This document shows, in pieces, positions 2,283 to 38,093 of a stretch of 64,000 nt of DNA. This stretch comes from Burkholderiales bacterium (GTDB lineage Bacteria > Pseudomonadota > Gammaproteobacteria > Burkholderiales > Eutrophovitaceae), in assembly GCA_035560005.1 (NCBI GenBank), contig DATMAN010000038.1, forward strand, positions 4,009-68,008, read 5' to 3'. Positions within the stretch are counted from its first letter, which is position 1. Every line of letters starts with the position of its first letter. The translations under genes and the position numbers were made by a program. The notes below the pieces were generated by a model. It was not told where the DNA came from. It made no database searches and saw nothing but the letters and a program-made list of their open reading frames with translations.

Positions 2283-3056
2283 ATGCGGGGCAGCTTCAGC
2301 CAACGGTATGCGCTCGATCTCGGCATCGATGGGCCCGGCGCCCTTCGAGGCACGTTCCCGAATCCGGCCGGAGGGCTCAATCTCGCGCTGGTCGTCACGG
2401 CGCTGCTCCTCGGTCTGATCGTGGACCGGTATGGAGGGCTGACCGGCCAGCTTGCGGCCAGCGTGTGGATGTGGGCCGTTTTCTTCCGCCTCCTCGGCAC
2501 CAGTCCCCGCGGATGGCGCCTTCCCTTCTACGCTTGCCTGATCTGGAGTGCGGCGGGCGAGATCTTTCTCTCCCTGGTCTGGGGTCTGTACACCTATCGG
2601 CTGGAGAACATCCCCTTCTTCGTTCCGCCGGGGCACGTGCTCGTGCTGTGGCTCGGACTGACGGCCGCCTCGCGAGCCCCCAGATGGTTCGTTGCCGCGG
2701 TTCCGGCGATCGCGGCGCTCTATGCGCTGGCGGCATGGTGGTGCCGCTTCGACACGTTCAGCATCCTGCTCACCGGAATGTTTCTCCTGTGCATGTTCAG
2801 GCACGAAGGGCGGGTTCTTTACGCCGTCATGTTCGTTCTCTCGCTCCTGATGGAACTCTATGGCACGTGGATGGGCAACTGGGTATGGCACCGCGAGGTG
2901 CCGTACTTCGGCCTGACCAGCCTCAATCCGCCGCTTGCGGTCGGCGCCTTCTACTGCGTGCTCGACGTTCTGGTCGGGATGACGGCGCGCGGCCTAACCG
3001 GCCGGCCGCGGGCCTTCGCGGCGCAGTTGGCGGTCAGCGCATCGGGTGTGCGCTGA
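2283..3056 (+). CDS. polytopic membrane protein, unknown family
   Basis: 257-aa ORF with several hydrophobic helices. No motif recognised. Confidence 0.5.
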   Translation: MRGSFSQRYALDLGIDGPGALRGTFPNPAGGLNLALVVTALLLGLIVDRYGGLTGQLAASVWMWAVFFRLLGTSPRGWRLPFYACLIWSAAGEIFLSLVWGLYTYRLENIPFFVPPGHVLVLWLGLTAASRAPRWFVAAVPAIAALYALAAWWCRFDTFSILLTGMFLLCMFRHEGRVLYAVMFVLSLLMELYGTWMGNWVWHREVPYFGLTSLNPPLAVGAFYCVLDVLVGMTARGLTGRPRAFAAQLAVSASGVR

Positions 3057-4380
3057 ACCCAGACCGCTTGCTCTGGCCGCAAGCGCGGTCCCCGCACCCG
3101 ACCGGCACAGTAGCGCGGAAAGCGCGGCAGACGCCCAGCGTGTGCAGAAGGTTTCGCCATAACAGCAGGAAGGAGACCGCCGCAGCCAGCGCTGCGGCGT
3201 GGGCGAACGGCTGCGGCCAGATCGCGGCGGCGATGAGCAGCGCCAGCGCCGTGCAGTGTGCCATCCCTTGCTGCGCACACCAGCGGTCCGGCAGGATCCT
3301 CTTGAGGGTGGGAGGTATGGCGGTACCTCGGGCCGCCGCCTGCATGTGCAGCCAGGCAAGGAACGGGGCGATGCGACAGAGCATCCCATTCACCACGGAG
3401 ACGGCGAATCCGAAGATCGCGAGCGTTCCGAGCAGCGGGTCGTAGCTGCGCCACTGCGCGAGCGGCCAGATCCGCGCCGCAAACCACAGTGTGCTCGCAA
3501 CGAGCAGGCACCACATCCCGGCGCGCCAGAGCTGCAGCGTGGGATCGGCTGCGCGCCTGCGCCGTCGCGATTGCAGGACCAGCGTGTACAGGGCAAAGGC
3601 TGCAACCGAGAGCGCGAGCACGGTCTGGGCCGCCAGCGACCAGAGGGGTCCCCCCGCAATCATCGCCGCGGCCGCCGCTGCGAGCCCGAAGAACGTGATC
3701 CAGCAGAAAGCCCGTACCGCGCGCACCGAGTACTCCGGCGTGGTCTGGAACATGGGCACGACCTGGGTCGCCACGCCCGCCACCAGCAGCAACACCCAGC
3801 CGATGAGCCCCCACTGCAGATGCAGATTCGTCAGCTTCTCGAGCGGCATCGGCCAACCGAGCGCGAGCGCCAGGGCGAGCGTTGCCCCGAGCATCGTGGC
3901 GACGAACAGCGCGACGAGCGCGAGGCGCGCCGCGGTCACGACCGGCCCCGCCGACTTGGCTCTGCGCAGAGCGAGCAGGCACGCCGCGATTGCCATGCCG
4001 AATCCGGCGGCAAGCGCGGCCGCCCCCGTTGCGAGCAACCACGGCCGCAGCGCCAGGAATCCGCCCGCCAGCAGCGTCGCGCCGGCCGCGAGCGCGCCAT
4101 GCACCCACGCAGCGGTGGTCGATCCGCCCGGAAGCCGCGCGCCGGCCACGACTGCCAGCACCTGGACGAGCGCGCCCATCATCACCATGGCCAGAAAACC
4201 GATGGTCAGAAGATGCGTGATCGCGAGCAGCGCCGGCGTCCAGCGTGAAACGAATGCATCCGGCCCGGCCCAAAGCAGCACGAGGCAGGCTGCCAGACCG
4301 AAAGGCGGCGCGCTGACAAAAAAGCGAAATGGAACCCACAGCGGCGGCGCTTGGCCGAAGGAGAGCGAGGCGGATCTCAC
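3034..4380 (-). CDS. polytopic (about 12 TM) membrane protein, last gene of the hemerythrin operon
   Basis: 448-aa hydrophobic ORF. Its GTG start overlaps the DUF2249 stop (GTGA). Confidence 0.6.
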   Translation of the reverse strand: MRSASLSFGQAPPLWVPFRFFVSAPPFGLAACLVLLWAGPDAFVSRWTPALLAITHLLTIGFLAMVMMGALVQVLAVVAGARLPGGSTTAAWVHGALAAGATLLAGGFLALRPWLLATGAAALAAGFGMAIAACLLALRRAKSAGPVVTAARLALVALFVATMLGATLALALALGWPMPLEKLTNLHLQWGLIGWVLLLVAGVATQVVPMFQTTPEYSVRAVRAFCWITFFGLAAAAAAMIAGGPLWSLAAQTVLALSVAAFALYTLVLQSRRRRRAADPTLQLWRAGMWCLLVASTLWFAARIWPLAQWRSYDPLLGTLAIFGFAVSVVNGMLCRIAPFLAWLHMQAAARGTAIPPTLKRILPDRWCAQQGMAHCTALALLIAAAIWPQPFAHAAALAAAVSFLLLWRNLLHTLGVCRAFRATVPVGCGDRACGQSKRSGFSAHPMR

Positions 4381-4601
4381 GGTCGCCGCCAGATCAGAAC
4401 TTCGAACCAGCCTTGCTCGTTCAGCTCGGTCCTGTAGCCGTACTGGTTCTCGCGCAGAATGCGGTACAGCGGCCGCGGCTCGCGGTCGATCAGCATGAGC
4501 ACCTGCTCATCCGTGCCGAGCCGGGCGATCGCGCTCAGCACGCGTTCCAATGGTTCGGGCGGCTCCAGCCCGCGGCAGTCGAGCACTCTGGGCGGCTGCA
4601 T
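4377..4601 (-). CDS. DUF2249 (TusA/SirA-like fold) protein
   Basis: 74 aa. LDCRGLEPPEPLERVLSAI matches the DUF2249 signature remembered from NO-stress loci. Confidence 0.7.
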   Translation of the reverse strand: MQPPRVLDCRGLEPPEPLERVLSAIARLGTDEQVLMLIDREPRPLYRILRENQYGYRTELNEQGWFEVLIWRRP

Positions 4602-4608
4602 GCGTGGT

Positions 4609-5052
4609 TCAGTCTTCGACGGCCAGATCTTCCAGCTCCGCCCGCAATGCCTCGCTGCGCTCGCCGAGCGCTTCGTCCATCATCGGATAGAGCGCCTGCT
4701 CCTCCTTTATGTTGTGCTGCCGGAGCATGATGGCGAGCGTGTCGGAAAGCTCCAGGTAGGCCGCGGCATCGCGTCGTTCGAGCGTCTTCGCCAGGTCCAG
4801 CACCAGGTCGCGCATGTGCAGATGCTCGATGGACATGACCCGCGTCGGACCCATCTCCCCGCCGGTTTCTTCCTCGAAGGCGGGAAACAGGATCGTCTCC
4901 TCGGCCTCGAAGTGCCGTTCCAGCGCGCCACGGAACCGCGCGAAATGCGCCGCGCCGACCGTCCAGTCGCCCTGCGCGATCGCGGTCTCGGCATCCGCGA
5001 AGTGACGGTCGCAGGCACGGTGCATCTGCGTCATGAAATCACCGATCGCCAT
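4609..5052 (-). CDS. hemerythrin domain protein
   Basis: H/E-rich hemerythrin-type motifs (HFxAEE, EHLHMRD, QHNIKEE). Start uncertain: Met at 5052, alternatives at 5085 or 5034. Confidence 0.7.
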   Translation of the reverse strand: MAIGDFMTQMHRACDRHFADAETAIAQGDWTVGAAHFARFRGALERHFEAEETILFPAFEEETGGEMGPTRVMSIEHLHMRDLVLDLAKTLERRDAAAYLELSDTLAIMLRQHNIKEEQALYPMMDEALGERSEALRAELEDLAVED

Positions 5053-5112
5053 CCTCCGCTCCGGGCCGCCGCGAACACGCCCCATTCTGGAGACGGCGAA
5101 CCGGCGCCTTCC

Positions 5113-5126
5113 TTGATCCGTATCAA
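5113..5126. promoter_or_regulatory. FNR/Dnr-type box TTGATCCGTATCAA
   Basis: Perfect TTGAT-N4-ATCAA palindrome about 65 nt upstream of the hemerythrin start. Confidence 0.6.
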
Positions 5127-5746
5127 CGAGGCGCGGATGCGAGGCGCGCGAAGAACCAGACGCTCGCGAGCAAGGTCAGGGTGGCGGCGATGCTCAGCGT
5201 CATGCCCATCGACAGGGACGCCACCGCTCCGCTCGCCGCCGGTGCGGCCAGCGCCAACGAGATGGCGAATGCTGTGACCGCGCAGCCGGCGAGCAGCGCC
5301 CGGCCGTGCCGCGGGGCTGGGGATGCAGATCGGTTGCGCAGATACAGCCACCACCCGATCGCCGCCATGGCGTTGCCCGCGATCACATTGCCCAGCGTGA
5401 CCGCCGGTGCGTAGCTGTCGCGCGCGGCGGCGCCGAGAACCGCGAGAAACGCAGTGAGCACGATCAACGCGAGGGCGAGCCAGCGTGTCTCCTGTCCAGC
5501 CTCGCGGCGCAGCCAGCCAAGTGCCGCAATCAGCAGCACGACCACGGCGACAACCGACGCCGAGAGCCGGTGCGCGGCTCTCGCGATCGTGCGCGCCAGA
5601 CTTGGCACGCTCCGCGTCGCACACTCGGGCCGGAATGCGCAGTCACCCGCCGCGGCCGAGAGCCGCAGGTAGGCGCTGCTCGCCAGGATGGCGAATACCA
5701 GGGCGGTGGCGAGCAGAGCCAGTCTCGCGATCAGCGGCGAGGGCAT
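5123..5746 (-). CDS. membrane protein, unknown family
   Basis: ORF 5123..5788 trimmed to MPSPLIARLALL. Several TM helices. A Cys pair (CAFRPEC) followed by AHR is faintly reminiscent of a COX15 N-terminal half. Confidence 0.45.
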   Translation of the reverse strand: MPSPLIARLALLATALVFAILASSAYLRLSAAAGDCAFRPECATRSVPSLARTIARAAHRLSASVVAVVVLLIAALGWLRREAGQETRWLALALIVLTAFLAVLGAAARDSYAPAVTLGNVIAGNAMAAIGWWLYLRNRSASPAPRHGRALLAGCAVTAFAISLALAAPAASGAVASLSMGMTLSIAATLTLLASVWFFARLASAPR

Positions 5747-5835
5747 GTTTCGCAAACGTTTGTTATCACCAAGGCACCGGCAAAACAAAGGCGGCGATTC
5801 TTCTTGATCTTCCCGATGTCCTCGCGCCTCGTTGT

Positions 5836-6113
5836 TCTAGAACCTATCTCAAAATCCCCGGCGGCCGCGGCGGGGTTGCCGGGGATGCAGCGCGAGGCGC
5901 GGCGAGGGGACCATTGGCCAGAGCCAAGGACCCGAGCCGCAACGACGCGCTGCGCCCCAAGTGACCCCGCCCCGAAGGGTTGCGACGATAAGCGGCCGTC
6001 TGCGTCGTTGGCGCGCTCGGTCGTAGGCTCAGCTACTGTCCTTCGCGCGCCGCCTCGCATCCGACCGCTTCTCGTCGCAACGCGACCGCCGGGGGTTTTG
6101 AGATAGGTTCTAG
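5836..6113. repeat. 278-bp nested inverted-repeat element (MITE-like)
   Basis: Termini CTAGAACCTATCTCAAAATCCCCGGCGG (5837..5863) and CCGCCGGGGGTTTTGAGATAGGTTCTAG (6086..6113) are 27-bp inverted repeats with 1 mismatch. An inner inverted pair GTTGCGACGATAAGCGGCCG / CCGACCGCTTCTCGTCGCAAC is also present. The right end covers the ctaA stop codon. Confidence 0.6.
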
Positions 6114-7135
6114 CCTTTGCGCAGCGCGTGGGCAAACCAGAGACTGGCGCCGAAGACGAGCACTGCACCGCCCTGATGCGCGGCGGCCAGCGGCACCGGG
6201 ACGACGAGCAGCAGCGTGCCGATGCCGAGCGCCACCTGGAGCGCGAGCAGAACGAGCAGGGTATTGGCGGCCAGCCGGGCACGATGCGGGAGCGCCGCCC
6301 GTCGCGACGCAAACCACAGCGCGGGCACCAGAAGGATGAGCAGCCAGGCGATCAGCCGGTGGTTGAACTGCACTGTTGCCATGTTGTTGAACAGATTCGC
6401 CCACCAGGGCTCCAGCATGAAGATCTCCGGCGGCACGAAGTGCCCGTTCATCAGCGGAAAGGTGTTGTAGGCATGTCCGGCGCGGATGCCCGCGACGAAG
6501 CCGCCGGAGAGCACCATCAGGAAGATCAGCGCCGTGAGTCCTGAGGCATGGCGCGCGAGCCTGCGCCGCGCGGGTGTGAGTACGGCGCGCGCCGGACAGA
6601 GCAGGTCGAGGGCGGTCCAGAGCATCGCCCCGAAGATCAGGAAGGCGAGCCCTAGGTGCGCCACGAGGCGGTACTGGCTGACCCGCGGGTCGTCGACCAG
6701 TCCGCTCATCACCATGTACCAGCCCATCCCGCCCTGCAGAGCGCCCAGAATGAAAATGCCTCCCAGCTTCCAAGCGAGCGGCCGCTCTATCCTTCGGCGC
6801 GCGAGAAACCAGACAAAAGGCACGAAGAACACCACCCCGATGGCGCGCCCCAGCAACCGGTGGATGTACTCCCACCAGAAGATTCCCTTGAACTCGTCGA
6901 GCGACATGTCCCTGTTGACCTTGCGGTACTGAGGCGTGGCCTGGTATTCCTCGAACAGCTCCTCCCAGTCCGATTGCGAAAGCGGCGGGATGGTCCCGAC
7001 CAGCGGTTCCCACTCCACGATGGACAGTCCGGACCCGGTCAGGCGGGTCACGCCCCCCACTACCACCATCGCGAACACCAGCGCGCAGCAGGCGAGCAGC
7101 CAGGCCGCGATTTGACGGCGATCAAACTCGGTCAT
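6110..7135 (-). CDS. ctaA: haem A synthase (COX15/CtaA family)
   Basis: ORF trimmed to [14 protein letters not shown]. Contains [25 protein letters not shown] and NHRLIAW His motifs typical of COX15. Confidence 0.8.
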
Positions 7136-7221
7136 TGTCCGGCTCCGATAGGCCAGGCGAGGTCGCATTCTATTCAGACACTTGCGCCGATGACAGCCCC
7201 GGTCCCGATGTCGGACGTTTC

Positions 7222-7235
7222 TTGATTCCGATCAA
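7222..7235. promoter_or_regulatory. FNR/Dnr-type box TTGATTCCGATCAA
   Basis: Perfect TTGAT-N4-ATCAA in the divergent ctaA / HCO-operon intergenic region. Confidence 0.6.
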
Positions 7236-7322
7236 TTCTTTTGGCTATCCGTCCGCGTAGCCTGCTAGCCACAGTGCCCGAAAGGGCGGACGAATCTCGC
7301 CGTCGCGTAGAGGAGACCGACC

Positions 7323-7505
7323 ATGACCGATTCCACCAGAGCCACCTCGGCAGGGGGAGAAGAGTCCGGCCAGGAGCGGGTGCCCGTGATGCAGCAGATC
7401 CTGGACAACCCGTTCCTGCTGCTCTTCTTCGGCATCGCCATCCCGACCGTTTTCTACATCGTCTGGGGCGTGATGGAGATCGTCACGATCCCGATCGCCA
7501 AGTGA
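7323..7505 (+). CDS. small single-TM protein, candidate oxidase subunit IIa analogue
   Basis: 60 aa with a GAGGAG SD and C-terminal TM helix FLLLFFGIAIPTVFYIVWGVM. It occupies the same position as cbaD in ba3 operons (small-II-I). Confidence 0.5.
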   Translation: MTDSTRATSAGGEESGQERVPVMQQILDNPFLLLFFGIAIPTVFYIVWGVMEIVTIPIAK

Positions 7506-7533
7506 GCAACCGCAGCCTCGGGGAGGATCGCAC

Positions 7534-8082
7534 ATGAGCGCCATTCTGCCGCCGCCCAGCCGGGTCTGGTGGAAACAGCCGCTGGACCGCGTCGAGGGCA
7601 CCTGGATCGCGATCGCGTTCCTGTGGTGCCTGGTCATGTTCTTCATGATGCCGTACTGGCACGTGTTCGGAAAACAGAATCTGTCCAGCGAGGCCTACCG
7701 CACCACACCCGAGGCGTACAGCGCCAAGGCCCAGGCGATGGTAGACAAGTACACGGTGCGCACCGAGACCGAGCAGCAGATCCCGGTGGTGCATCCCCCC
7801 GCGGGCAGCGACGTCTACCTGATCGCGCGGCTGTGGTCGTGGTGGCCGATCCTCGAGCTGGAGAAGGGGCAGACCTACCGGCTGCACCTGTCGTCGATGG
7901 ATTACATGCACACGTTCTCGTTGCAACCGGAGAACATGAACATCCAGGTGATCCCCGGTTACGAAGGCGTGTACACCGTGACGCCCACGCGCGCCGGCAA
8001 ATACTCGGTGCTGTGCAACGAGTACTGCGGCATCGGCCATCACACGATGGTCTCCAATCTGTACGTCGTCGACAAGCCATAG
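7534..8082 (+). CDS. haem-copper oxidase-family subunit II with intact CuA site
   Basis: 182 aa, one N-terminal TM helix. CuA motif MHTF...CNEYCGIGHHTM fits H...CxExCGxxHxxM. Confidence 0.8.
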   Translation: MSAILPPPSRVWWKQPLDRVEGTWIAIAFLWCLVMFFMMPYWHVFGKQNLSSEAYRTTPEAYSAKAQAMVDKYTVRTETEQQIPVVHPPAGSDVYLIARLWSWWPILELEKGQTYRLHLSSMDYMHTFSLQPENMNIQVIPGYEGVYTVTPTRAGKYSVLCNEYCGIGHHTMVSNLYVVDKP

Positions 8083-8094
8083 CAGGGAGGGCAG

Positions 8095-9807
8095 ATGGCC
8101 ACCGTTTCCTTGTACCGAACCTGTCCGGACACCGGGCTGCAGTTCCACAAGTCCGCCGAGACGCTGATGAAGGCGCACGCGGTCGCGGCTGTGGTGTGGC
8201 TGCTCATCGGCGGGGTGCTCGCGCTGCTGGTCACGCTCACGCGCTGGCCGGCGGTGCGCCTGCTGGCCGCCGACCAGTTCTACATGACGCTCACCGCGCA
8301 CGGCATCGACATGCTCATCTTCTGGATCATCTTTTTCGAGATCGCGGTGCTGTACTTCTGCTCCTCCACCCTGCTGCGCAGCCGACTGGCCACGCCGCGC
8401 ATCGCCTGGCTCGGGTTCGCCCTGATGCTGATCGGCTCGATCGTGACCAACGTCGCGGTCTTTCAGGGCGCCTCCAGCGTGATGATGACCTCCTACGCGC
8501 CGATGCCGGCCCAGCCGCATTTCTATCTCGGGCTGATCCTGTTCGCGGTCGGCGCGCTGATCGGCTGCTTCGTCTTCCTCGGCACCCTGGTCGTGGCGCG
8601 CGCCGAGCGCACCTACGAGGGATCCATCCCGCTGGTGACTTTCGGCGCGCTCACCGCCGCCATCATCGCGATCTTCACCATCGCCTCCGGAGCGATCATC
8701 CTGATTCCGACTTTCCTCTGGTCCGTGGGTTACATCAGCCACATCGACCCGCTGATGTACAAGACCGTGTGGTGGGCTTTCGGGCACTCCTCGCAGCAGA
8801 TCAACGTTTCGGCGCACGTCGCCGTGTGGTATGCGATTGCGGCCATCGTGTTCGGCGCCAAGCCGATGTCGGAGAAGGTGAGTCGCAGCGCCTTCCTGCT
8901 CTACATCCTGTTCCTGCAACTGGCGAGCGCGCACCACGTCTTGGTCGATCCGGGCATCAGCTCCGAGTGGAAGGTCTTCAACACCAGCTACGCGATGTAC
9001 CTCGCGGTGCTGGCCAGCATGGTGCACGGGCTCACCGTCCCCGGTTCGATCGAGGTGGCCCAGCGGCAGAAGGGCTACAACCGTGGCCTGTTCGAGTGGA
9101 TCCGCAAGGCGCCGTGGGGCAACCCGGTGTTCTCGGGCATGTTCATCTCGCTTCTCGGTTTCGGCTTCCTGGGCGGAATTTCGGGCGTGATGATGGGAAC
9201 CGAGCAACTGAACATCATCATCCACAACACCGTCTACGTGCCAGGCCACTTCCACGCGACTGTGGTGGTGGGCACCACGCTGGCGTTCATGTCACTGACC
9301 TACTTCCTCATCCCGGTGCTGTTTCGCCGCCAGATGATCCTGCCGGGGCTCGCGAAGTGGCAGCCGTACATCTTCGGTATCGGCATGGCGCTGGTGGCGT
9401 TGTTTTTGATGGGTGCAGGAACATTGGGCGTGTCGCGACGGCACTGGGATATGGCGTTCACCGGCGCGGTGATGCCCTACGAGTATCCGGGCACGGCTTA
9501 CCTCATGATGGGCCTGATGGGTCTGTCGGGACTGCTGGCGATGGTGGGCGGGGCGATCTACATCTTCATCACGGTGGGATCGCTGTTGTGGGGCAAGCGT
9601 CTGGACGCGAAGGATGCCTACGGCGAGAAGATCAATCCGCTGCGCCTTCCGCCGGTGGCGGCCGCGATCGAGGGCCATGGCGGCCTCGGCATCCGCGGGT
9701 TCGCTGCGCCGGGCACCTTTGTCTTCGCGCTGGTGTTCCTGGTGGCGTTCGTCCTGTACTACTTCGTCAACTGGAAGTACCTGTCCCAGGTGTGGCTGAT
9801 CGGCTGA
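8095..9807 (+). CDS. haem-copper oxidase-superfamily subunit I, B-family-like, lacking the cross-linked Tyr (candidate eNOR/sNOR-type NO reductase)
   Basis: 570 aa. His69, His231, His280/281 and His385/387 mirror ba3 H72/H233/H282/H283/H384/H386. Helix VI reads WWAFGHSSQQ, so Gln235 (8797..8799) sits where ba3 has Tyr237. Confidence 0.8.
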   Translation: MATVSLYRTCPDTGLQFHKSAETLMKAHAVAAVVWLLIGGVLALLVTLTRWPAVRLLAADQFYMTLTAHGIDMLIFWIIFFEIAVLYFCSSTLLRSRLATPRIAWLGFALMLIGSIVTNVAVFQGASSVMMTSYAPMPAQPHFYLGLILFAVGALIGCFVFLGTLVVARAERTYEGSIPLVTFGALTAAIIAIFTIASGAIILIPTFLWSVGYISHIDPLMYKTVWWAFGHSSQQINVSAHVAVWYAIAAIVFGAKPMSEKVSRSAFLLYILFLQLASAHHVLVDPGISSEWKVFNTSYAMYLAVLASMVHGLTVPGSIEVAQRQKGYNRGLFEWIRKAPWGNPVFSGMFISLLGFGFLGGISGVMMGTEQLNIIIHNTVYVPGHFHATVVVGTTLAFMSLTYFLIPVLFRRQMILPGLAKWQPYIFGIGMALVALFLMGAGTLGVSRRHWDMAFTGAVMPYEYPGTAYLMMGLMGLSGLLAMVGGAIYIFITVGSLLWGKRLDAKDAYGEKINPLRLPPVAAAIEGHGGLGIRGFAAPGTFVFALVFLVAFVLYYFVNWKYLSQVWLIG

Positions 9808-9838
9808 GCCGGGGCGGAGGATCGGACGGGAGACGACT

Positions 9839-10690
9839 GTGAGAGCGGTGTTCGGTCTGTTCAAGCTGCGGATCGGCGTCGTCATCACCTGGACCGCGCT
9901 GGCCGCGGTATCGATGACCGCGGGACCGGCGCTGTCGGCGTGGCAGATGCTCGTGCTCGGGCTGTCGGTGCTGGTGGCCTCCGCGTCGGCCGGGGCGTTC
10001 AATCAGTACGTGGAGCACGATCTCGACCGGCGCATGTCGCGCACTCGCGACCGGCCGTTCGTGACCGGGCAACTGGTGCACGACGCGCGCTGGATGTGGG
10101 TGATCATGGCGTTGCTGGCCGCTTCGGTCGCCGCCGCGGCCTATGCGTTGAATGCGCTCACCGCGCTCTATGTCTTTCTCGGCGCCTTCTTCTACGCGAT
10201 CGTCTATACCGTGTGGCTCAAGCGCCGCACGTGGCTCAACATCGTGATCGGCGGGCTCGCGGGCAGCTTCGCGGTGCTCGCCGGCGCCGCGGCGGCGGGC
10301 GACGCCTTGGATCCGCAACCGCTGCTGCTCGCGATCGTGCTCTTCCTGTGGACGCCATCGCACTTCTGGAGCCTGGCGATCGCCTACCGCGAAGACTACG
10401 TCGCGGCCGGCGTGCCGATGCTTCCGGCGGTGATCGGCAATGTGCGCAGCGCGCGCGTGATCTTCGGAAACACCGCCGCGCTCGTCGCCGTCTCCCTGCT
10501 ACCGGTGTTCTACGGCGCCGGCTGGATCTACTTCGCCGGCGCGGCGCTGGGCGGCGGCTGGTTCCTGTACAAGAGCTACCGGCTGATGCGCAATCCCTAT
10601 CGGCGCGAGGCGATGAAGGCGTTCTTCGCTTCGCTCGCCCAGCTCGCGCTGCTGCTTTCCGCCGCCATGCTAGAAGCCGCGCTTCGCTGA
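9839..10690 (+). CDS. ctaB: protohaem IX farnesyltransferase (haem O synthase)
   Basis: 283 aa, GTG start. UbiA-type motifs NQYVEHDLDRRMSRTRDRP and LFLWTPSHFWSLA. Confidence 0.85.
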   Translation: MRAVFGLFKLRIGVVITWTALAAVSMTAGPALSAWQMLVLGLSVLVASASAGAFNQYVEHDLDRRMSRTRDRPFVTGQLVHDARWMWVIMALLAASVAAAAYALNALTALYVFLGAFFYAIVYTVWLKRRTWLNIVIGGLAGSFAVLAGAAAAGDALDPQPLLLAIVLFLWTPSHFWSLAIAYREDYVAAGVPMLPAVIGNVRSARVIFGNTAALVAVSLLPVFYGAGWIYFAGAALGGGWFLYKSYRLMRNPYRREAMKAFFASLAQLALLLSAAMLEAALR

Positions 10691-10693
10691 GGA

Positions 10694-10855
10694 CTCATGC
10701 GCTCACCGCGGAGGACGCGGGGAAATGCAGACCGGAGATTCACCACAAAGACCCAAAGAGAGCAAAGGTCACGAAGGAAACAACAAGAAGTCTTCGTGCT
10801 CCTTTGTGTCTTGGTGCCTTCGTGCCCTGCCTTCGGAGTGCCCTCAGTGTTCGGC
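10694..10855. repeat. palindromic repeat element, copy 1 (right outer arm degenerate)
   Basis: Starts 4 nt after the ctaB stop with GCGCTCACCGCGGAGGACGCGGGG. Inner CACAAAG/CACGAAG-type arms pair with TCTTCGTGCTCCTTTGTGTCTTGGTGCCTTCGTGCC. Confidence 0.6.
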
Positions 10856-10864
10856 TATCTCGAC

Positions 10865-11650
10865 ATGGCCTGGCGTTCATTGATCGCTGTGGTGCTGGCG
10901 GCGATGCCGGCGCTGGCGGCGGCGCAGGCCACGGCGCCGGACACGGACCAGGCGCTTGCGCTGAGCCAGGCGGCGATCGGCGCGCAGGTCGACGACTACG
11001 CGCTCGTGCGCAGCGACGGTGGCAGCGTGCGCCTGTCGGAGTTCAGGGGCAAACCACTGCTCGTGCAGTTCATCTACACCGGATGCTTCCAGGCCTGCCC
11101 GGTGTCGGTGAGGTACCTGCAGCGCGCGGTCGCCACGGCGCGCGCGGCGCTCGGGCCGGATGCGTTCTCCGTTCTCACCGTAGGCTTCAACCAGCCATTC
11201 GACACCCCGCAGGCGATGGCGGCGTTCGCTCGCGAGCACGCAATCGAGGATCGGCGCTGGTACTTTCTCGCAACCGATACCCGGACCATTGCCGCTTTCA
11301 CCCGCACCTTGGGCTTTACCTGGTATGCGACGCCCAAAGGCTTCGATCACGTCGCCCAAGTCACGGTGCTCGACGCGCGGGGCCGTGTCTATCGCCAGAT
11401 CTACGGCGAGCGCTTCGAGGCGCCACTGCTGGTCGAGCCGCTCAAGCAGCTCATCACCGGCGCGCCGGTCGCGCAAGGAGACTGGCGCGCCTGGCTCGAG
11501 AAGGTGCGGCTGTTCTGCACGGTCTACGACCGTTCCAGCGGCCGCTACCGGCTCGATTATTCGCTGTTCATCGAGATCTTCGCCGGCCTGACCATCGCGA
11601 GCACCGTCATCTTCGGGTTGCTTCGCGAGTGGCGCCGCCAGCGCCGCTGA
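10865..11650 (+). CDS. SCO1/SenC family copper chaperone
   Basis: ORF 10697..11650 trimmed to MAWRSLIAVVLAAMPALAAAQA. Thioredoxin-fold CxxxC (YTGCFQACP) and a C-terminal TM helix. The upstream part of the ORF is repeat-derived. Confidence 0.75.
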   Translation: MAWRSLIAVVLAAMPALAAAQATAPDTDQALALSQAAIGAQVDDYALVRSDGGSVRLSEFRGKPLLVQFIYTGCFQACPVSVRYLQRAVATARAALGPDAFSVLTVGFNQPFDTPQAMAAFAREHAIEDRRWYFLATDTRTIAAFTRTLGFTWYATPKGFDHVAQVTVLDARGRVYRQIYGERFEAPLLVEPLKQLITGAPVAQGDWRAWLEKVRLFCTVYDRSSGRYRLDYSLFIEIFAGLTIASTVIFGLLREWRRQRR

Positions 11651-11826: not shown

Positions 11827-11840
11827 TTGATGCGAATCAA
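11827..11840. promoter_or_regulatory. FNR/Dnr-type box TTGATGCGAATCAA
   Basis: Perfect palindrome about 120 nt upstream of the cytochrome b-Fd-FNR gene. Confidence 0.55.
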
Positions 11841-11959
11841 ATGGGACCCGGGCATCCGCCGGTAGAGTGGTCCTGCGCGCGTTACGCGCGACCTATCGGC
11901 AGGCGAAGGAAGATGACTCCCGGCATTGCAGCGCCGCCCCGTCAGCAGGGGCGCAGCCG

Positions 11960-13846
11960 ATGACCCGCGGCATGCAGAAGGCGGGGCAGTGGCTGTTCCT
12001 GCGCGTGGAAGCCGGCTTCAACGCCTTCTTCGGCCAGGCCCTCAATCCGCTCTATCACCTGGGCGCGATCGGCTTCTTCCTGTTCTGGATCGCGCTCGCG
12101 AGCGGCTTGTACCTGTACGCATTTTTCGACACGGGCGTGACGGAAGCCTACGACTCGGTGGAAAAACTCACGCGCCAGTGGTACCTGGGCGGACTGATGC
12201 GCAGCCTGCACCGCTACGCCTCCGACGGCATGGTGCTGGTGATGATGCTGCACATGCTCCGGCACTTCGTGTTCGGTCGCTACCGCGATTTCCGCTGGTT
12301 CTCGTGGGCCACCGGGGTCGTGCTGCTGTGGCTCACCTACGCCTCGGGCATCAACGGCTATATGCTGCCCTGGGACCGTCTCGGCCAGTTCGTGGCCACC
12401 GCCACCGGCGAATGGCTCGACTGGTTCCCCATCTTCGCCGGCGAGGCAGCGCGCAACTTCGCCTTCCGCGGCAGCGTCAACGATCGCCTGTTCTCCCTGC
12501 TTTCGTTCCTGCATATCGGCATACCGCTCGCTGTGCTGATCCTCGCCTGGGTGCATACCCAGCGCGTTCCGCGGGCGCGCATCAACCCGCCGCGCGCGAT
12601 CTGGCTGCCGCTCGGGCTCGCGCTGGTCGTGCTCTCGCTCCTCAAGCCCGCGATGAGCCAGGGGCCGGCCGATCTCGCCGTGGTGCCCGCGACGCTGGCG
12701 CTCGACTGGTACTACCTGCCGCTCTATCCGCTGATCTACGAGTGGTCGCCCGGCGAAGTCTGGGCGCTGGCCTTCGGCGCGACGCTGCTGTTGTTTCTGG
12801 TGCCCTGGCTTCCGGCGCGCCGCGCGCGCGGCCATGAGCACCACGTCACCTTCCGTCCCGCCAATCTCTCCGCGACCGTGCGCGCGGGCGAGACGCTGCT
12901 GGAAGCCGGCTTGCGGCAGGGCATCGCGCTGCCTTACGACTGCCGTAACGGCGGCTGCGGCGTGTGCAAGGTGGCGATCGTGCACGGCCAGGTGGATCAC
13001 GGTCCCTACCAGAAGTCGGTGCTTTCCGACGAGGAGCGGGCGCGTGGAATGGCGCTGTTGTGCTGCGCGATCCCTCTTTCCGATCTGGACATCGAAGTGG
13101 AAACGGCCGCCTTGCCGAAGCGGGTGTGGGAGGCGACCGTCGTGCGCATGCAACGCGCGGCGCCCGAGGTCATGCTGCTGTGGCTGAGGCTCGATGGGTC
13201 TGAGCGCATCGAGTATCGCGCCGGGCAGTACATCAACATCCTTCTTCAGGACGGTGCCCGGCGCGCGTACTCCTTCGCCACGGCGCCCGGCGCCTCGGAT
13301 CTCATCGAACTGCACGTGCGGCGCATGCCCGGCGGGCGCTTCACCGGCTGGGTATTCGAGAAGATGCGGGTGGGCGACCGGCTGCGCTTCGAAGGACCGT
13401 TCGGAGCGTTCGTCCTCAACGAGGAAAGCCCGCGGCCGGTGATCTTCGTGGCCGGCGCCACCGGTTTCGCACCGGTGAAGAGCATGCTGGAAGACGCCTT
13501 CCGCAAGAACGTGCGCCGGCCGATGGTGCTCTACTGGGGCGTGCGCAGCCGGGAAGATCTCTACATGGCCGAACTTCCGGAACGCTGGGCACGCGAGCAC
13601 CCGAACTTCAGCTTCGTGCCGGTGCTCTCCGAGCCGAAGCCCGAAGACCACTGGCGCGGCCGCACGGGCCTGGTGCACGAGGCGATCCTGCAGGACTTCC
13701 CGACGCTGAAGGGTTACGAAGTGTATGCCTGCGGCTCGATGCAGATGGTCGAGGCGGCGCATCCCGAGTTCATCGCGCGCGGGCTGTCCGAGGATGCCTG
13801 CTTTTCCGACGCCTTTACCCCCGCGCCGGAGCCGGCGGCAACGTGA
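11960..13846 (+). CDS. fusion protein: di-haem cytochrome b + plant-type 2Fe-2S ferredoxin + FAD/NAD(P)H ferredoxin-reductase module
   Basis: N-terminus has the bc1-type cytochrome b pattern: HRYASDGMVLVMMLH and HIGIPLAVLILAWVH (His pairs 14 apart) and GYMLPWD. Middle has CRNGGCGVCK...LCC. C-terminus has RAYSFA (RxYS FAD motif) and VFVAGATGFAPV (NAD(P) binding). Confidence 0.75.
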   Translation: MTRGMQKAGQWLFLRVEAGFNAFFGQALNPLYHLGAIGFFLFWIALASGLYLYAFFDTGVTEAYDSVEKLTRQWYLGGLMRSLHRYASDGMVLVMMLHMLRHFVFGRYRDFRWFSWATGVVLLWLTYASGINGYMLPWDRLGQFVATATGEWLDWFPIFAGEAARNFAFRGSVNDRLFSLLSFLHIGIPLAVLILAWVHTQRVPRARINPPRAIWLPLGLALVVLSLLKPAMSQGPADLAVVPATLALDWYYLPLYPLIYEWSPGEVWALAFGATLLLFLVPWLPARRARGHEHHVTFRPANLSATVRAGETLLEAGLRQGIALPYDCRNGGCGVCKVAIVHGQVDHGPYQKSVLSDEERARGMALLCCAIPLSDLDIEVETAALPKRVWEATVVRMQRAAPEVMLLWLRLDGSERIEYRAGQYINILLQDGARRAYSFATAPGASDLIELHVRRMPGGRFTGWVFEKMRVGDRLRFEGPFGAFVLNEESPRPVIFVAGATGFAPVKSMLEDAFRKNVRRPMVLYWGVRSREDLYMAELPERWAREHPNFSFVPVLSEPKPEDHWRGRTGLVHEAILQDFPTLKGYEVYACGSMQMVEAAHPEFIARGLSEDACFSDAFTPAPEPAAT

Positions 13847-14364: not shown

Positions 14365-15975
14365 ATGACCGCCGTTGCTCCCACCACCGCCGTTGCGATG
14401 CCGGCTGTGCGCCGCGCCGGCGAAACGCCGGGCCGTGCACAAATCCCCGCGCGCTCCCCGCAATGGTGGCGTGCGATGGAACGCGCAGTCGACGGCGTGA
14501 CCGGCGCGCGCCACAATCCGCTGCGAAACCTCGGCGCCCTCGGGTTCTACTTCTTCTGGATCGTTACCGCGAGCGGGGTCTATCTCTACGCTTTCTTCGA
14601 CACCAGCGTGACCGGTGCCTGGCAAAGCGTGGAGCGCATCACGCACGAGCAGTGGTACCTGGGCGGACTGATGCGCAGCCTGCACCGCTACGCCTCGGCC
14701 GGATTCTGCGTAGTCATGCTCGTGCATCTGTTGAAAGAGACGCTGTCGCGTCACTTCGGCGGCTTGCGTACATTCTCCTGGTTGACCGGCGTGCCGCTGA
14801 TCTGGCTCGCCTACGCCGCGGCGATCGGCGGCTACTGGCTGGTGTGGGACCGGCTCGCGCAGTTCTCCGCGACCGCGACCATGGAGTGGCTCGATGCGCT
14901 CGGCATCTTCGGGGAGCCGCTCGCGCGCAACTTCATCGCGCCCGACGCGGTCGACGACCGCCTCTTCTCGCTGCTGGTGTTCCTGCACATCGGCATTCCG
15001 CTGGCGCTGCTGCTCGGCATGTGGACGCACATCCAGCGCTTGAGCCACGCGGCAGTGTTGCCGTCGCGCCGGCTGGCGGCCTGCAGCTTCGCCGCGCTGC
15101 TGGCGGTGAGCGTGGTCCATCCGGCGCTCAGCCAGCCGCCCGCGGATCTCGCGCGCGTGCCTCGACAGCTCGGACTCGACTGGTTCTACATGTTCGTGCA
15201 TCCGCTCATGTATGAGACCTCCGCGGCCACCGTGTGGTGGCTGGCCGGCGCCGCGACCCTTCTGCTCGCGGCCCTGCCGCTCTTCGTGCGCGAGCCACGC
15301 GCACCGGCGGCGGTCGTCGATCCGCGCAACTGCAACGGTTGCGGGCGGTGCGTGGACGACTGCCCGTACGTGGCGATTACGCTCGTTCCCCATTCGATTA
15401 CCGGCGGACGGACATTGCAGGCGCTGGTCGATCCGGACCGCTGCGCGGCCTGTGGCATCTGTGTGGGCGCCTGTCCGTCTTCCACGCCGTTCCGTTCGGC
15501 GCGCGTGCTCGCCAGCGGAATCGAGCTGCCGCAGCTCACCGTGGATTCGCTGCGCGCGCGGCTGCGCGCCGCGCTCGCGCCCGCACCGGACCGCGCCCGC
15601 TACGTTGTCTTCGGTTGCGACTGCGCGGCCGAGGTCGCATCGCTGGCGAGCCGCGACGTCGCGGTCTTCGGCCTGCCGTGCGCCGGCATGCTGCCGCCGT
15701 CTTTCATTGCCTATGCCTTGCGGCTGGGCGCGCAGGGCGTGGTGGTGAGCACCTGCGGCGAAGGTGAGTGCGCCTACCGGCTCGGCGCCGAGTGGATCGA
15801 GCAGCGCATCAGCGCTCGGCGCGACCCGCGGCTGCGCCGCTCGGTGCCGCGCGATCGCGTGCGCCTGGTGCCGGCCGCGGGCGGCGAGTCCCGGCGCGTG
15901 GCCACGGAACTGGCGCTGCTGCGTGCGCATGCCGGCCAGCCGCAGCGCCTGGCGCGCCGAGGAGAAGCCGCATGA
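14365..15975 (+). CDS. fusion protein: di-haem cytochrome b + 2x[4Fe-4S] ferredoxin + MvhD/FlpD-like domain
   Basis: The cytochrome b domain is a paralogue of 11960..13846 (LHRYAS...MLVH, FLHIGIPLALLLGMWTH, GGYWLVWD). It is followed by CNGCGRCVDDCP and CAACGICVGACP, then VVFGCDC...LPCAGMLPPSFIAYALRLGAQGVVVSTCGEGECAYRLG resembling the MvhD delta-subunit domain. Start uncertain. Confidence 0.7.
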   Translation: MTAVAPTTAVAMPAVRRAGETPGRAQIPARSPQWWRAMERAVDGVTGARHNPLRNLGALGFYFFWIVTASGVYLYAFFDTSVTGAWQSVERITHEQWYLGGLMRSLHRYASAGFCVVMLVHLLKETLSRHFGGLRTFSWLTGVPLIWLAYAAAIGGYWLVWDRLAQFSATATMEWLDALGIFGEPLARNFIAPDAVDDRLFSLLVFLHIGIPLALLLGMWTHIQRLSHAAVLPSRRLAACSFAALLAVSVVHPALSQPPADLARVPRQLGLDWFYMFVHPLMYETSAATVWWLAGAATLLLAALPLFVREPRAPAAVVDPRNCNGCGRCVDDCPYVAITLVPHSITGGRTLQALVDPDRCAACGICVGACPSSTPFRSARVLASGIELPQLTVDSLRARLRAALAPAPDRARYVVFGCDCAAEVASLASRDVAVFGLPCAGMLPPSFIAYALRLGAQGVVVSTCGEGECAYRLGAEWIEQRISARRDPRLRRSVPRDRVRLVPAAGGESRRVATELALLRAHAGQPQRLARRGEAA

Positions 15976-17387
15976 AAATGCTTTCGCATTCCCCGGTCTC
16001 TCCAGCCTCCTGGAGCCTTCCCGGCGTTGACTACGCGCTCGCGGTCCCGCGCGACGCCCGCGCGCGGCTGGCCTTCGCCTGGCTGATGCTCGGTGTCGTC
16101 TCGCTGATCGCTGCGGGACTCTTCTCGGTGCTGCTGGTCGCTTCGCGCACGCCGTTGGTCCAGGGTTTCTTCCCGCTGGTCGATTTCTTTCACGTAGCGC
16201 TCGTGGTGCACGTCGACCTCTCGGTGCTGGTGTGGTTCAGCGCGTTTGCGGGCGTGTTCTGGAGTCTCAATTGCACCGTCGCCTGGCTGCCCGGTGGATG
16301 GACGGCGCTCGTGGTGTGCAGCGCGGGCGCGCTGGCGATGGCGGCCGCGGCCTTCGTTGGCGCGCCGCAGCCGATCATGAGCAACTACGTGCCGGTGCTG
16401 GACGGCGCGCTCTTCCTGGGAGGGCTCGCGGCCTTCGCCGTCGGCGCGGGTCTGCTCGTGCTGCGCGCAATGCGCGCGGTGCCGCGCGTGGGAACGGTGC
16501 TGGACGGGCAGGGCGCCTTGCGCTTTGCGCTCAACGCGGCGGCGGTGTCCGCCGCGATCGCACTCGGCGCGTTCTTCTGGTCCTGGCTGGAAGTGCCGGC
16601 GGCGCTCGAGGGCAAGGCCTACTACGAGCTGCTGTTCTGGGGCGGCGGCCATGTCCTGCAGTTCACGTGGACGCTGCTCATGTTCGCCGCGTGGCTGTGG
16701 CTCGCGTCCGAGTCGGGCTGCCCGCTGCCGCTCACGCCGCGCGTGGCGGTGCTGCTGTTCGGCATCGCGCTCGCCTCGGTGTTCGTCACGCCGATCATCT
16801 ATCTCGCCTGGGACGTCGCCTCGGTCGAGCACCATCGCCTGCTCACCTGGCTGATGCGTTTCGGCGGCGGGCTGACGATACTTCCCATCGGACTGGCGGT
16901 CATCTACGCGCTGTGGCGGGCAAGGGCGGGCACAGCGGGCCAGCAGGCGCTGCGTGCCGTGCTGGCGATGTCGGCCGTCCTGTTCGCCTTTGGCGGGCTG
17001 ATCGGGCTCACCATCGAGGGCTCGAACGTCAAGGTGCCCGCCCACTACCACGGCAGCATCGTCGGCGTCACCCTTGCCTTCATGGGCGTGGCTTACCTGT
17101 TGCTGCCGCGGCTGGGCTATTCGCGCGTGAACGCGCGCGCGGCGCGGGTCCAGGCCCGGCTCTACGGCGTGGGGCAGATGCTGCACATCACCGGCCTGGT
17201 CTGGTCGGGCGGCTACGGCGTGCAGCGCAAGGTAGCCGGCGCCGCGCAGGGGCTGGACGCGTTGGAGAAAGTGGCGGCGATGGGGCTGATGGGTTTCGGC
17301 GGACTGATCGCGGTGATCGGCGGAGTGATGTTCATCGTCATCGTGCTCAAGAGCGTTCTTCGCGGCCGCCAGCAAGCAGTCAACTGA
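15972..17387 (+). CDS. orphan, highly divergent haem-copper-oxidase subunit-I-like membrane protein
   Basis: ORF 15768..17387 trimmed to MKMLSH after a GGAGAAG SD, with an ATGA overlap on the upstream stop. About 12 TM helices. HCO-like His pattern: FFHVALVVH, FWGGGHVLQF (no Tyr), VEHHRL, FGGLIGL...PAHYH. Confidence 0.6.
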   Translation: MKMLSHSPVSPASWSLPGVDYALAVPRDARARLAFAWLMLGVVSLIAAGLFSVLLVASRTPLVQGFFPLVDFFHVALVVHVDLSVLVWFSAFAGVFWSLNCTVAWLPGGWTALVVCSAGALAMAAAAFVGAPQPIMSNYVPVLDGALFLGGLAAFAVGAGLLVLRAMRAVPRVGTVLDGQGALRFALNAAAVSAAIALGAFFWSWLEVPAALEGKAYYELLFWGGGHVLQFTWTLLMFAAWLWLASESGCPLPLTPRVAVLLFGIALASVFVTPIIYLAWDVASVEHHRLLTWLMRFGGGLTILPIGLAVIYALWRARAGTAGQQALRAVLAMSAVLFAFGGLIGLTIEGSNVKVPAHYHGSIVGVTLAFMGVAYLLLPRLGYSRVNARAARVQARLYGVGQMLHITGLVWSGGYGVQRKVAGAAQGLDALEKVAAMGLMGFGGLIAVIGGVMFIVIVLKSVLRGRQQAVN

Positions 17388-17603: not shown

Positions 17604-18614
17604 ATGAATGTGGGCGCACTCGAACTGGTATGTCCAGCGGGAAACCTGGCCGCGCTGCAGGCGGCGGTGGACAATGGCGCGGACGCCGTGTACGTCGGCT
17701 TGCGCGACGGCACCAACGCGCGCAACTTCGCCGGTCTCAATTTCTCGCAGACCGAGCTCGAGCGCGCGGTGGCGCACGCGCACGCACGGGGCGCGAAAGT
17801 TTACGTCGCGATCAACACGTACGCCCAGCCCGACGCGGTCGAGCGCTGGTGCCGCGCGGTGGACTGCGCCGCCGACCTGGGCGCCGACGCGATCCTCGCC
17901 GCGGACATGGCGGTGCTCGACTATGCCGCGCGCAGCCGGCCGAGTCTGCACCGCCACCTGTCGGTGCAAGGCTCGGCCACGACCTACGAGGCGATCAATC
18001 TGTTCGTGCGCGAATTCGGCGTGAGCCGCGCGGTGCTGCCGCGGGTGCTGACTTTGGCGCAAGTCGCGCAGGTGGCGGCGAAGGCGCGCGCGGAGATCGA
18101 GGTTTTCGGATTCGGCAGCCTCTGCGTCATGGTCGAAGGGCGCTGCGCGCTCTCCTCCTATGTCACCGGCCAGTCGCCCAACACCGCGGGCGTGTGCTCC
18201 CCGGCCGCGGCGGTGCGCTGGCAGCAGGGTTCGCGGGGGCTGGAGTCGCGATTGAATGGCGTGCTGGTGGATTGCTACGCCGAGCACGAGCGCGCGGCTT
18301 ATCCCACCCTCTGCAAGGGCCGCTACGCGGTCGGCGAGCGCACCCGCTACGCCATCGAGGAACCGGCGAGCCTGAACACGCTGGAGCTGCTGCCCCGGCT
18401 CGCGGCCGCCGGCGTGAAAGCCGTGAAGATCGAAGGTCGCCAGCGCAGTGCCGCTTATGTCGCGGAAGTCACCCGGGTCTGGCGTGCGGCCATCGATGCC
18501 CTAGAGCGCGATCGGCAGCCATGGCGGCCGCGCGCCGACTGGCTCGCGCGCCTGGACGCGCTGGCCGAAGGCAGTCAGCACACCTTCGGCGCCTACGAGC
18601 GCCCCTGGAAATGA
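17604..18614 (+). CDS. ubiU: U32-family protein, O2-independent ubiquinone hydroxylation factor UbiU
   Basis: Peptidase U32 N-terminus [27 protein letters not shown]. Four-Cys region (CVMVEGRC...C...C). Followed by the ubiV and ubiT homologues. Confidence 0.7.
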
Positions 18615-18621
18615 GGTCAGC

Positions 18622-22267: not shown

Positions 22268-22367
22268 GAGAATCGAAGGAAGCGGCGGTCGACCGCGCCC
22301 CGGCGTTGTGTCCCCACAACGGGTTGCGCTAGGTTTTGCGCACGTCCACAAAAGGTAGGAGGTGTGC

Positions 22368-26497: not shown

Positions 26498-26712
26498 CGA
26501 AATTGAACCACGGAGGACACGGAGGACACGGAGGAAGAACGAGAAAGGTGACAAGAGAGTGTCAGAAGGTGCGTTGACTGAATTGGCCCTCGATGCGAAG
26601 TGGGTTGGGGACAGATCGACCACGTGAGTTTGCACCCGCTGCTTGCATGGGCGTTACTCCAAGTTCCTGTTTTTCTCCGTGTCCTCCGTGTCCACCGTGG
26701 TTCATATTTTTC
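26498..26712. repeat. palindromic repeat element, copy 6 (GGACAC-type arms)
   Basis: Left GAAATTGAACCACGGAGGACACGGAGGACACGGAGGAAGAACGAG. Right CTGTTTTTCTCCGTGTCCTCCGTGTCCACCGTGGTTCATATTTTTC. About 45-bp near-perfect inverted arms. Starts 1 nt after the radical SAM stop. Confidence 0.8.
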
Positions 26713-26726
26713 TGAAAGGAGAAGCG

Positions 26727-38041: not shown

Positions 38042-38093
38042 CCGCTCATGTCTCCTTGGATTCCCGCGGGAAAGCGCTCACCGCGCTTTATCC

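Follow-up and report, generated by a model that had tools for sequence, protein, structure and literature searches.

The stretch of DNA considered here, hereafter the window, comprises 64,000 nt from a Burkholderiales bacterium (Eutrophovitaceae; assembly GCA_035560005.1, contig DATMAN010000038.1, positions 4,009-68,008) and contains an operon for a haem-copper enzyme whose catalytic subunit has Gln at the site of the Tyr that is cross-linked to His in oxygen reductases. Judged from its sequence, this locus very probably encodes a three-subunit nitric oxide (NO) reductase of the eNOR family, together with genes for assembling its cofactors. It is an ordinary member of an already described family, and its identification is a re-labelling, not a discovery; the residual novelty is an unexplained accessory module downstream. 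The operon and its upstream flank contain the following features (ORF, open reading frame; strands given as + or -):

6110-7168 (-): ctaA (haem A synthase), divergent from the operon; PF02628, E 2.2e-115
7222-7235: perfect FNR/Dnr-type box TTGATTCCGATCAA between ctaA and the eNOR genes, by sequence match
7323-7505 (+): 60-aa single-helix protein, positional analogue of ba3 subunit IIa
7534-8082 (+): subunit II, CuA cupredoxin (COX2); PF00116, motif CNEYCGIGHHTM
8095-9807 (+): subunit I, 570 aa, catalytic, eNOR type; PF00115, 228.7 bits
8797-8799 (+): CAG codon for Gln235, the site of the cross-linked Tyr237 of ba3
9839-10690 (+): ctaB (haem O synthase); TIGR01473, 261.9 bits against a cut-off of 210.3
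10697-11650 (+): SCO1/SenC copper chaperone; PF02630

A preliminary description made from the DNA letters had proposed the order small transmembrane protein, CuA subunit II, subunit I, and the ORF list and profile scans bear this out. It had also assigned the operon its own ctaB and SCO1/SenC genes, with ctaA divergent, and the matches to TIGR01473, PF02630 and PF02628 agree. The operon ORFs are real genes, as shown by their third-position guanine-cytosine (GC) content of 0.82-0.91. The ATG of the 60-aa ORF has GAGGAG 7 nt 5' of it, and the invariant residues of this small protein include P30, F31, L33-F35, G37, P41, Y45, W48 and G49.

Gene content was compared across 80 related loci, in which the 60-aa ORF (76/80), subunit II (79/80), ctaB (72/80) and SCO (69/80) recur; within the 53 loci that were informative for downstream genes (at least 8.5 kb of downstream sequence), ctaB is found in 49 and SCO in 51. 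A nearby ctaA occurs in 17 of the 66 related loci with at least 3.5 kb upstream, and ctaA has been reported in many eNOR operons (PMC11214002). In the SCO protein, C130-x3-C134 and H218 are invariant. Conservation starts only past approximately residue 80, and the true start of this protein is probably Met57, at 10865, because the first 56 codons are unconserved and Arg-rich.

Subunit II has ba3 subunit II as its best match in the PDB (E 4e-14). The CuA motif claimed for it in the preliminary description is complete, and the CuA ligands H126, C161, E163, C165, H169 and M172 are invariant across 83 subunit II sequences. Also invariant in these 83 is Glu21, the counterpart of Glu15 at the K-channel entrance in ba3 subunit II.

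Catalytic subunit and family placement

Helix VI of subunit I contains GHSSQQ and does not have the H-x3-Y of B-family oxygen reductases. Starting at 8770, the coding sequence runs tgg tgg gct ttc ggg cac tcc tcg cag cag, which places the His231 codon at 8785-8787 and the Gln235 codon at 8797-8799, and both this readout and an alignment to the ba3 oxidase of Thermus thermophilus agree with the earlier reading of the helix as WWAFGHSSQQ, with Gln235 replacing the cross-linked Tyr. The ba3 oxidase is the best PDB match for subunit I (phmmer, E 4e-46); a sequence search of the PDB found no eNOR structure. The phmmer alignment pairs H231 with ba3 H233, Q235 with the cross-linked Y237, H280/H281 with H282/H283 and H385/H387 with H384/H386. 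Together with H69, these residues provide the six canonical haem-copper His ligands, which are a feature of eNORs, at positions near the ba3 numbering, as had been noted before.

Conservation of subunit I was counted over 86 members of the clade that has Gln at both positions preceding the (I/V)-N of helix VI (the Gln-Gln group). H69, H231, Q234, Q235, N237, Y246, H280, H281, S308, H311, E320, H385, R448 and R449 are invariant in 86/86, and T314 is kept in 95%. H387 is kept in 85/86, with Lys in the Thermus gene only; this change of a low-spin haem ligand is the variant reported for some eNORs, in which His and Lys ligate the low-spin haem (PMC11214002). A pseudogene or a sequencing error at codon 235 is ruled out by the invariance of Gln235 across the 86 sequences. 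The K-channel analogues, which the preliminary description had left for checking, are in place: S308, H311, T314 and Y246 lie on ba3 S309, T312, T315 and Y248, and subunit II contributes Glu21. A compensating Tyr from another helix was sought as well. Migration of the Tyr to helix VII in the style of the C family is ruled out, the residue at that position being Leu274. Helix VIII, in turn, holds Tyr299 (8989-8991) in an N-T-S-Y motif, which is invariant in 86/86 eNOR-clade sequences and absent both from the Tyr-keeping sister clade described below and from the B family.

Haem-copper families differ in the residue that occupies the Tyr site: it is Tyr in O2 reductases, Gln in eNOR, Asp in gNOR and Glu in cNOR and qNOR (PMC8756737, Table A4), and Asn in sNOR and CuA-NOR (bNOR) (PMC8756737, Table A4, after Hemp and Gennis 2008). 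Furthermore, eNOR keeps a B-type K-channel with the Ser309 equivalent, whereas in sNOR the Ser309 counterpart is missing and a conserved Glu is found at another site of the channel region (PMC11214002). On these residues the protein is an eNOR and not an sNOR, because it has Gln235 where sNOR has Asn and because S308 is present. It carries every feature by which an eNOR is recognised in sequence and departs from sNOR at both the Asn and the Ser309 position. The preliminary description had left its candidate NO reductase as eNOR- or sNOR-type; the former assignment stands on Gln235 and S308, while the latter, which needs Asn and no Ser309 equivalent, does not. The hint of sNOR that it saw in senC is not diagnostic, since SCO is also present in 51/53 informative eNOR loci. 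Nor does the enzyme resemble cNOR or qNOR: the His+4 residue of helix VI is Gln, not the Glu that the FeB site of these enzymes needs, subunit II is a CuA cupredoxin instead of a cytochrome c subunit or a fused quinol-binding domain, and the closest relatives belong to the B family.

A homologue search with subunit I in a set of ~15 billion proteins, using one representative per 50%-identity cluster, recovered 1490 relatives with E < 1e-3 and 211 with E < 1e-30. These relatives fall into groups with distinct helix VI motifs. The Gln-Gln group, with GH-x-x-Q-Q-(I/V)-N, includes the query, P0121 (54% identity), P0129 from the haloarchaeon Natrarchaeobius (~40%) and plasmid genes of Defluviimonas (63%), Thermomicrobium roseum (45%) and T. 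thermophilus (47%). A Gln-Tyr sister group, with GH-x-x-Q-Y-(V/I)-N, retains the Tyr and includes archaeal Hodarchaeales and Thermoproteota; it fits the 'K family' of oxygen reductases that clusters beside eNOR (FIND preprint, 10.1101/592808). Canonical B-family members have GHP(I/L)VYFW and are 24-30% identical to the query. In a tree built by neighbour-joining only, with 100 bootstraps, the Gln-Gln group is monophyletic (86/100) and its proteobacterial part has 100/100, with the Tyr-bearing B family distant from it. Subunit I therefore does not sit inside the Tyr-bearing B-family oxidases, a placement on which the preliminary description had made its proposal depend, and instead lies beside the Tyr-keeping sister clade.

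Other haem-copper genes were encountered in these searches. Plasmid-borne genes of Deinococcus, Methylobacterium and Geobacillus, considered as sNOR candidates, were all rejected as Tyr-bearing B-family oxidases. Three relatives ~30% identical to the query (P0189, P0190 and P0224, one of them from a Dehalococcoidia genome) have Tyr for the first His of the His-His pair (FLYH), FHVYHY in helix VI, and a further Tyr where the high-spin haem has its proximal ligand (AYLH/GYFH). On T. thermophilus plasmid pTthSNM6-6b (L082, 7319-9680), the eNOR gene with Lys for the second low-spin haem His (GHFK) lies in an NO-handling context, with a multicopper oxidase, a DUF542 protein, cytochrome P460, a cytochrome c and an Rrf2-family regulator encoded alongside it.

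Subunit I is widespread. The protein search scored at least 8000 relatives, and when one genome was scanned for each species, a 72-85% identical subunit I turned up in at least 584 of them, mostly metagenome-assembled genomes of Burkholderiales and other Gammaproteobacteria. Cultured carriers are Noviherbaspirillum sp. ST 5-3, Curvibacter sp. PAE-UM and Piscinibacter caeni MQ-18. No Magnetospirillum was named among the 120 matches listed at >=80% identity for the Defluviimonas query. In public databases, the protein itself and those listed relatives that have a name are called 'cytochrome c oxidase subunit I' or 'cbb3-type' oxidase. Prior studies have nevertheless recognised the enzyme: eNOR is present in many Ca. 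Accumulibacter strains and is expressed, and Gallionellaceae KS expresses one when denitrifying (PMC11214002). The Accumulibacter enzyme was earlier called ba3, with FNR motifs found upstream (PMC6446978), and Ferrigenium straubiae has a matching operon, once misread as a second coxAB, whose proteins occur in its denitrifying proteome (10.64898/2026.01.22.701106).

Accessory module, regulation and neighbouring genes

Downstream of the SCO gene lies a second group of genes, with its own FNR box:

11827-11840: second perfect FNR box, preceding the accessory module
11867-13846 (+): dihaem cytochrome b fused to 2Fe-2S, FAD and NAD(P)H-binding domains; PF00033, PF00111, PF00970, PF00175
13859-14362 (+): 167-aa ORF, hydrophobic segment at the N-terminus, Cys54 and Cys75 invariant
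14365-15975 (+): dihaem cytochrome b fused to two [4Fe-4S] motifs and an MvhD/FlpD-like domain; PF00033, Fer4 families, PF02662
15969-17387 (+): HCO2, a divergent haem-copper-like protein; Pfam COX1 at just 32.9 bits

Linkage of this module to eNOR is shown by its recurrence in the 53 informative loci, where the 2Fe-2S/FAD fusion is found in 38, the 167-aa ORF in 52, the [4Fe-4S] fusion in 51 and HCO2 in 50. The two cytochrome b fusions have been called unusual, and a quinol:NAD+ oxidoreductase supercomplex has been suggested (10.64898/2026.01.22.701106); within the present eNOR subclade, they are the norm. The 11867-13846 fusion fits the description of 'Cytbc1-like protein 1' in the F. straubiae eNOR operon (10.64898/2026.01.22.701106). 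In the [4Fe-4S] fusion, H107, H121, H208, H222 and both CxxCxxCxxxC motifs are invariant, and both fusions, whose redox domains form cytoplasmic tails, keep DW(Y/F)Y, which recalls PEWY in the Qo site of bc1. The 167-aa ORF has no Pfam or NCBIfam match. At the Defluviimonas locus the module is partial: a cytochrome b/FeS gene, the small ORF and a gene for hemerythrin are there, but HCO2 is missing.

HCO2 is the gene listed as 'eNOR scaffold protein' in a recent preprint (10.64898/2026.01.22.701106), and it belongs to a family of at least 5980 proteins. It has no NCBIfam match and no PDB sequence match. Aligned to the eNOR profile with hhalign, it gives a probability of 99.7% (E 1.3e-25, 28% identity over 437 columns), and the best PDB fold match of its AlphaFold2 model, which is of moderate to good confidence (pLDDT 78.8, pTM 0.85), is ba3 (3s8f_A, E 1.2e-7). 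The invariant residues of HCO2 include the ligands of the low- and high-spin haems (H81, H361 and H359), one distal His (H228), Gln231 and an Arg-Lys pair (R420, K421). H280/H281 of eNOR fall in a gap of the alignment, and the His-His pair of the CuB/FeB site is not conserved, which leaves this eNOR paralogue with no such site. A more distant HCO2 relative lies in a matching ten-gene cluster. HCO2 was also considered as a norB and ruled out, being without the His-His pair and closest to the eNOR/ba3 type.

The joint function of eNOR and its module is a matter of speculation, raised in part by the 2026 preprint (10.64898/2026.01.22.701106). It is possible, though doubtful, that in beta- and gammaproteobacteria the two form a membrane supercomplex tying NO reduction to the NAD(P)(H)/quinol pool, with HCO2 as a haem-only catalytic or electron-conduit subunit instead of an inert scaffold. 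Electrons in such a supercomplex could flow from NAD(P)H to drive NO reduction, or in reverse to NAD+.

FNR-type boxes are strongly enriched in the window: 12 have at most one mismatch, against 0.43 expected, and none of 100 shuffles gave more than 3. Perfect boxes lie at 5113 (hemerythrin operon), 7222 (ctaA/eNOR), 11827 (accessory module), 22254 (nrdD) and 44089 (nirS/nirE), and boxes with one mismatch at 7112, 20053, 21061, 22210, 29094, 34406 and 56359. The box at 7222-7235 is the one that the preliminary description had placed in the shared promoter region, and it matches perfectly. A TAGCCT -10-like hexamer follows at 7258-7263; the box centre would lie ~41.5 bp from the inferred start, which fits class II FNR promoter geometry. 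Upstream boxes are also common elsewhere: of 74 related operons, 31 have a box with no more than one mismatch in the 260 bp ahead of them, compared with 1.7% of random 260-bp windows, and when two mismatches are allowed, 78% of related operons have one, compared with 9% of random windows. The box would put the eNOR operon under a low-oxygen/NO-responsive Crp/Fnr regulator, together with nirS and other anaerobic genes; a Crp/Fnr-family regulator gene adjoins nirS at 45117-45887. With the hemerythrin operon, eNOR, the accessory module, nrdD and nirS/nirE, the first 45 kb resembles a single regulon island for low oxygen/NO.

Several neighbouring genes merit mention in their own right. Directly 3' of the accessory module are ubiU and ubiV (17604-19515, +; NCBIfam equivalogs above cut-offs), for O2-independent ubiquinone synthesis, an odd companion to an enzyme needing O2-dependent haem A. 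The FNR-box-preceded operon at 3034-5788 (-) contains hemerythrin, a DUF2249 protein and a 448-aa membrane protein without a family match, and at 5123-5788 a 221-aa, half-size CtaA-like ORF (weak COX15 match, E 5.6e-5) that recurs in 16/80 related loci. Adjoining the nirS cluster and the Crp/Fnr regulator, a 362-aa beta-propeller gene (46116-47204, +) scores 74.8 bits with the model for lactonase-type clade III N2O reductase, far below its cut-off of 700, and also matches hydrazine synthase beta weakly, far below threshold. An 84-aa ORF (26643-26897, +) matches only the C-terminal end of NrdD (Pfam positions 531-562), presumably the glycyl-radical region. This ORF, located just 5' of the radical-SAM activase gene and distinct from the complete nrdD (22362-24404), may encode a spare-part protein. 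Finally, an EgtB-like gene (DinB + FGE-sulfatase) and an EgtD-like histidine methyltransferase gene at 47829-50311 (-) look like a pair for ergothioneine synthesis.

Proposed NO reduction and alternative readings

Reduction of NO to N2O is most likely the reaction of this enzyme, given its family membership and genomic context, and we likewise infer which haem and which non-haem metal it contains, how it takes up protons and what regulates it. A periplasmic donor (cytochrome c or a cupredoxin) would reduce the CuA site of subunit II, from which electrons would pass to a low-spin haem on His69/His387 and on to a binuclear site formed by a high-spin haem on His385 and a metal on His231, His280 and His281. 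There, two NO and two electrons would yield N2O. Gln235, flanked by the invariant Gln234 and Asn237, would occupy the place of the His-Tyr cofactor, and this redox-active cofactor may be dispensable because NO reduction takes two electrons. A K-channel-like chain from subunit II Glu21 through Thr314, Tyr246 and His311 to Ser308 could deliver cytoplasmic protons, making the NO step electrogenic. CtaB and CtaA would supply a-type haem, and SCO would supply copper, at minimum for CuA.

The characterised eNOR of Rhodothermus marinus reduces NO and not O2 and has haem As in both sites (PMC11214002). In the window, nirS and haem d1 genes occupy 35157-45067, and NnrS, nrdDG and ubiUV are also present; a nirS orthologue lies within 10 kb in 10/80 related loci. 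The preliminary description had seen no cNOR or qNOR gene near nirS in the window, and a Pfam scan of all sizeable ORFs there agrees, finding no other NO reductase gene; the sole further PF00115-like ORF is HCO2 (15969-17387).

Several points weigh against this assignment. The R. marinus enzyme is the sole eNOR characterised, and it is not proteobacterial; the placement of the present protein beside it would rest on the signature and on statements in the literature. Tyr299 in helix VIII could conceivably lie near His231 as an active-site Tyr. The presence of SCO hints at copper, whereas characterised NO reductases use iron as the non-haem metal. Haem A synthesis requires O2, at odds with a promoter that looks FNR-activated, and the enzyme may perhaps work under microoxic conditions only. 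Moreover, eNOR need not be the sole or main NO reductase of the cell; Accumulibacter has norZ alongside its eNOR-type enzyme (PMC6446978).

Alternatively, the enzyme may not serve mainly in respiratory NO reduction, acting instead at a low rate in detoxification or signalling, or working only in complex with the cytochrome b fusions and HCO2. That the 167-aa ORF, [4Fe-4S] fusion and HCO2 are linked to the operon in 50-52 of the 53 loci, and that the module has an FNR box to itself, is consistent with a larger complex, as is the supercomplex with a quinol:NAD+ oxidoreductase proposed for F. straubiae (10.64898/2026.01.22.701106), and another role could relate to the turnover of R. marinus eNOR, which is slower than that of some qNORs (PMC11214002). 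However, the eNOR loci of Thermus, T. roseum and the haloarchaeon do not have the module, and R. marinus eNOR was isolated and is active alone (PMC11214002). We consider this reading unlikely.

A B-family ba3-like terminal O2 reductase that dispenses with the cross-linked Tyr, or uses a Tyr of a different helix in its place, is less probable still. Such an enzyme would account for the closeness of subunits I and II to ba3, the closest solved structure for both, for the oxidase-typical CuA subunit, haem A genes, SCO and K-channel-like residues, and for the names given to relatives, and the invariant, eNOR-specific Tyr299 could be the substitute Tyr. Against it stand the Gln in 86/86 sequences, the position of the protein outside the Tyr-bearing clades, Leu274 at the C-family helix VII position, and the FNR box in the promoter of an anaerobic gene island; R. 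marinus eNOR, furthermore, was inert on O2 with various donors, and the structural models of that study show no migrated Tyr (PMC11214002). This makes O2 reduction very improbable. An sNOR, the senC-associated NO reductase candidate of ammonia oxidisers, shares with this locus the SCO/SenC gene and the missing Tyr and is scarcely credible here, where Gln235 stands in place of the Asn of sNOR (PMC8756737), where the Ser309 equivalent that sNOR has lost (PMC11214002) is present as an invariant S308, and where the SCO gene is no argument, being standard in eNOR operons.

If the enzyme is an eNOR-type NO reductase, as we favour, genome-based denitrification inventories overlook an NO reductase in many Burkholderiales with nirS because its relatives are labelled cytochrome oxidases, and may misjudge which organisms make N2O. 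Should the enzyme draw its protons from the cytoplasm, energy would be conserved at the NO step, in contrast to cNOR. Close relatives in cultured mesophiles make genetics on eNOR and the accessory module practical.

Comparison with known systems

T. thermophilus ba3 (PDB 1EHK, 3S8F) shares with the present enzyme the IIa-like/II/I gene layout, the six His ligands and the CuA site, and its K-path Ser309, Thr315 and Tyr248 and subunit II Glu15 all have counterparts here. In contrast to ba3, the query has Gln for Tyr237, His for Thr312, and Val for Tyr244 with His241 adjacent, and belongs to a separate clade. The sNOR systems (norSY-senC) are likewise B-family-derived and Tyr-less, with a CuA subunit and senC in the cluster, but differ in the Asn at the Tyr site, in having no Ser309 equivalent and in a different putative proton path (PMC8756737, PMC11214002).

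The Magnetospirillum magnetotacticum enzyme is alphaproteobacterial, unlike the query. Its operon presumably has the matching order small ORF, subunit II, subunit I, haem O synthase. This 'cytochrome a1-like' haemoprotein is listed as an eNOR that has the same spectra as the R. marinus enzyme and no cytochrome c oxidase activity (Tanimura and Fukumori 2000, cited in PMC11214002).

The eNOR of R. marinus DSM 4252 (PMC11214002), known to us from descriptions, resembles the present system in its CuA subunit II, K-channel-like residues, association with ctaA and haem A, and occurrence in a nirS-carrying denitrifier, and in the Gln for the cross-linked Tyr that the literature gives for eNOR. R. marinus is a thermophile of the Bacteroidota, whereas the genome here is mesophilic, 65% GC and betaproteobacterium-like, and the proteobacterial clade adds His241 and the downstream accessory module.

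Finally, F. straubiae KS and the Accumulibacter 'ba3' (PMC6446978; an eNOR in PMC11214002), compared by description, share the gene set of the present locus. Accessory gene order differs in F. straubiae, where a PerM gene is inserted and ctaA lies elsewhere, whereas here ctaA is adjacent and divergent. The gene set in common with F. straubiae comprises the small ORF, subunits II and I, haem O synthase, Sco1 and the module genes; proteins of the F. straubiae and Accumulibacter systems have been detected under denitrifying conditions, and FNR motifs upstream are reported in Accumulibacter.

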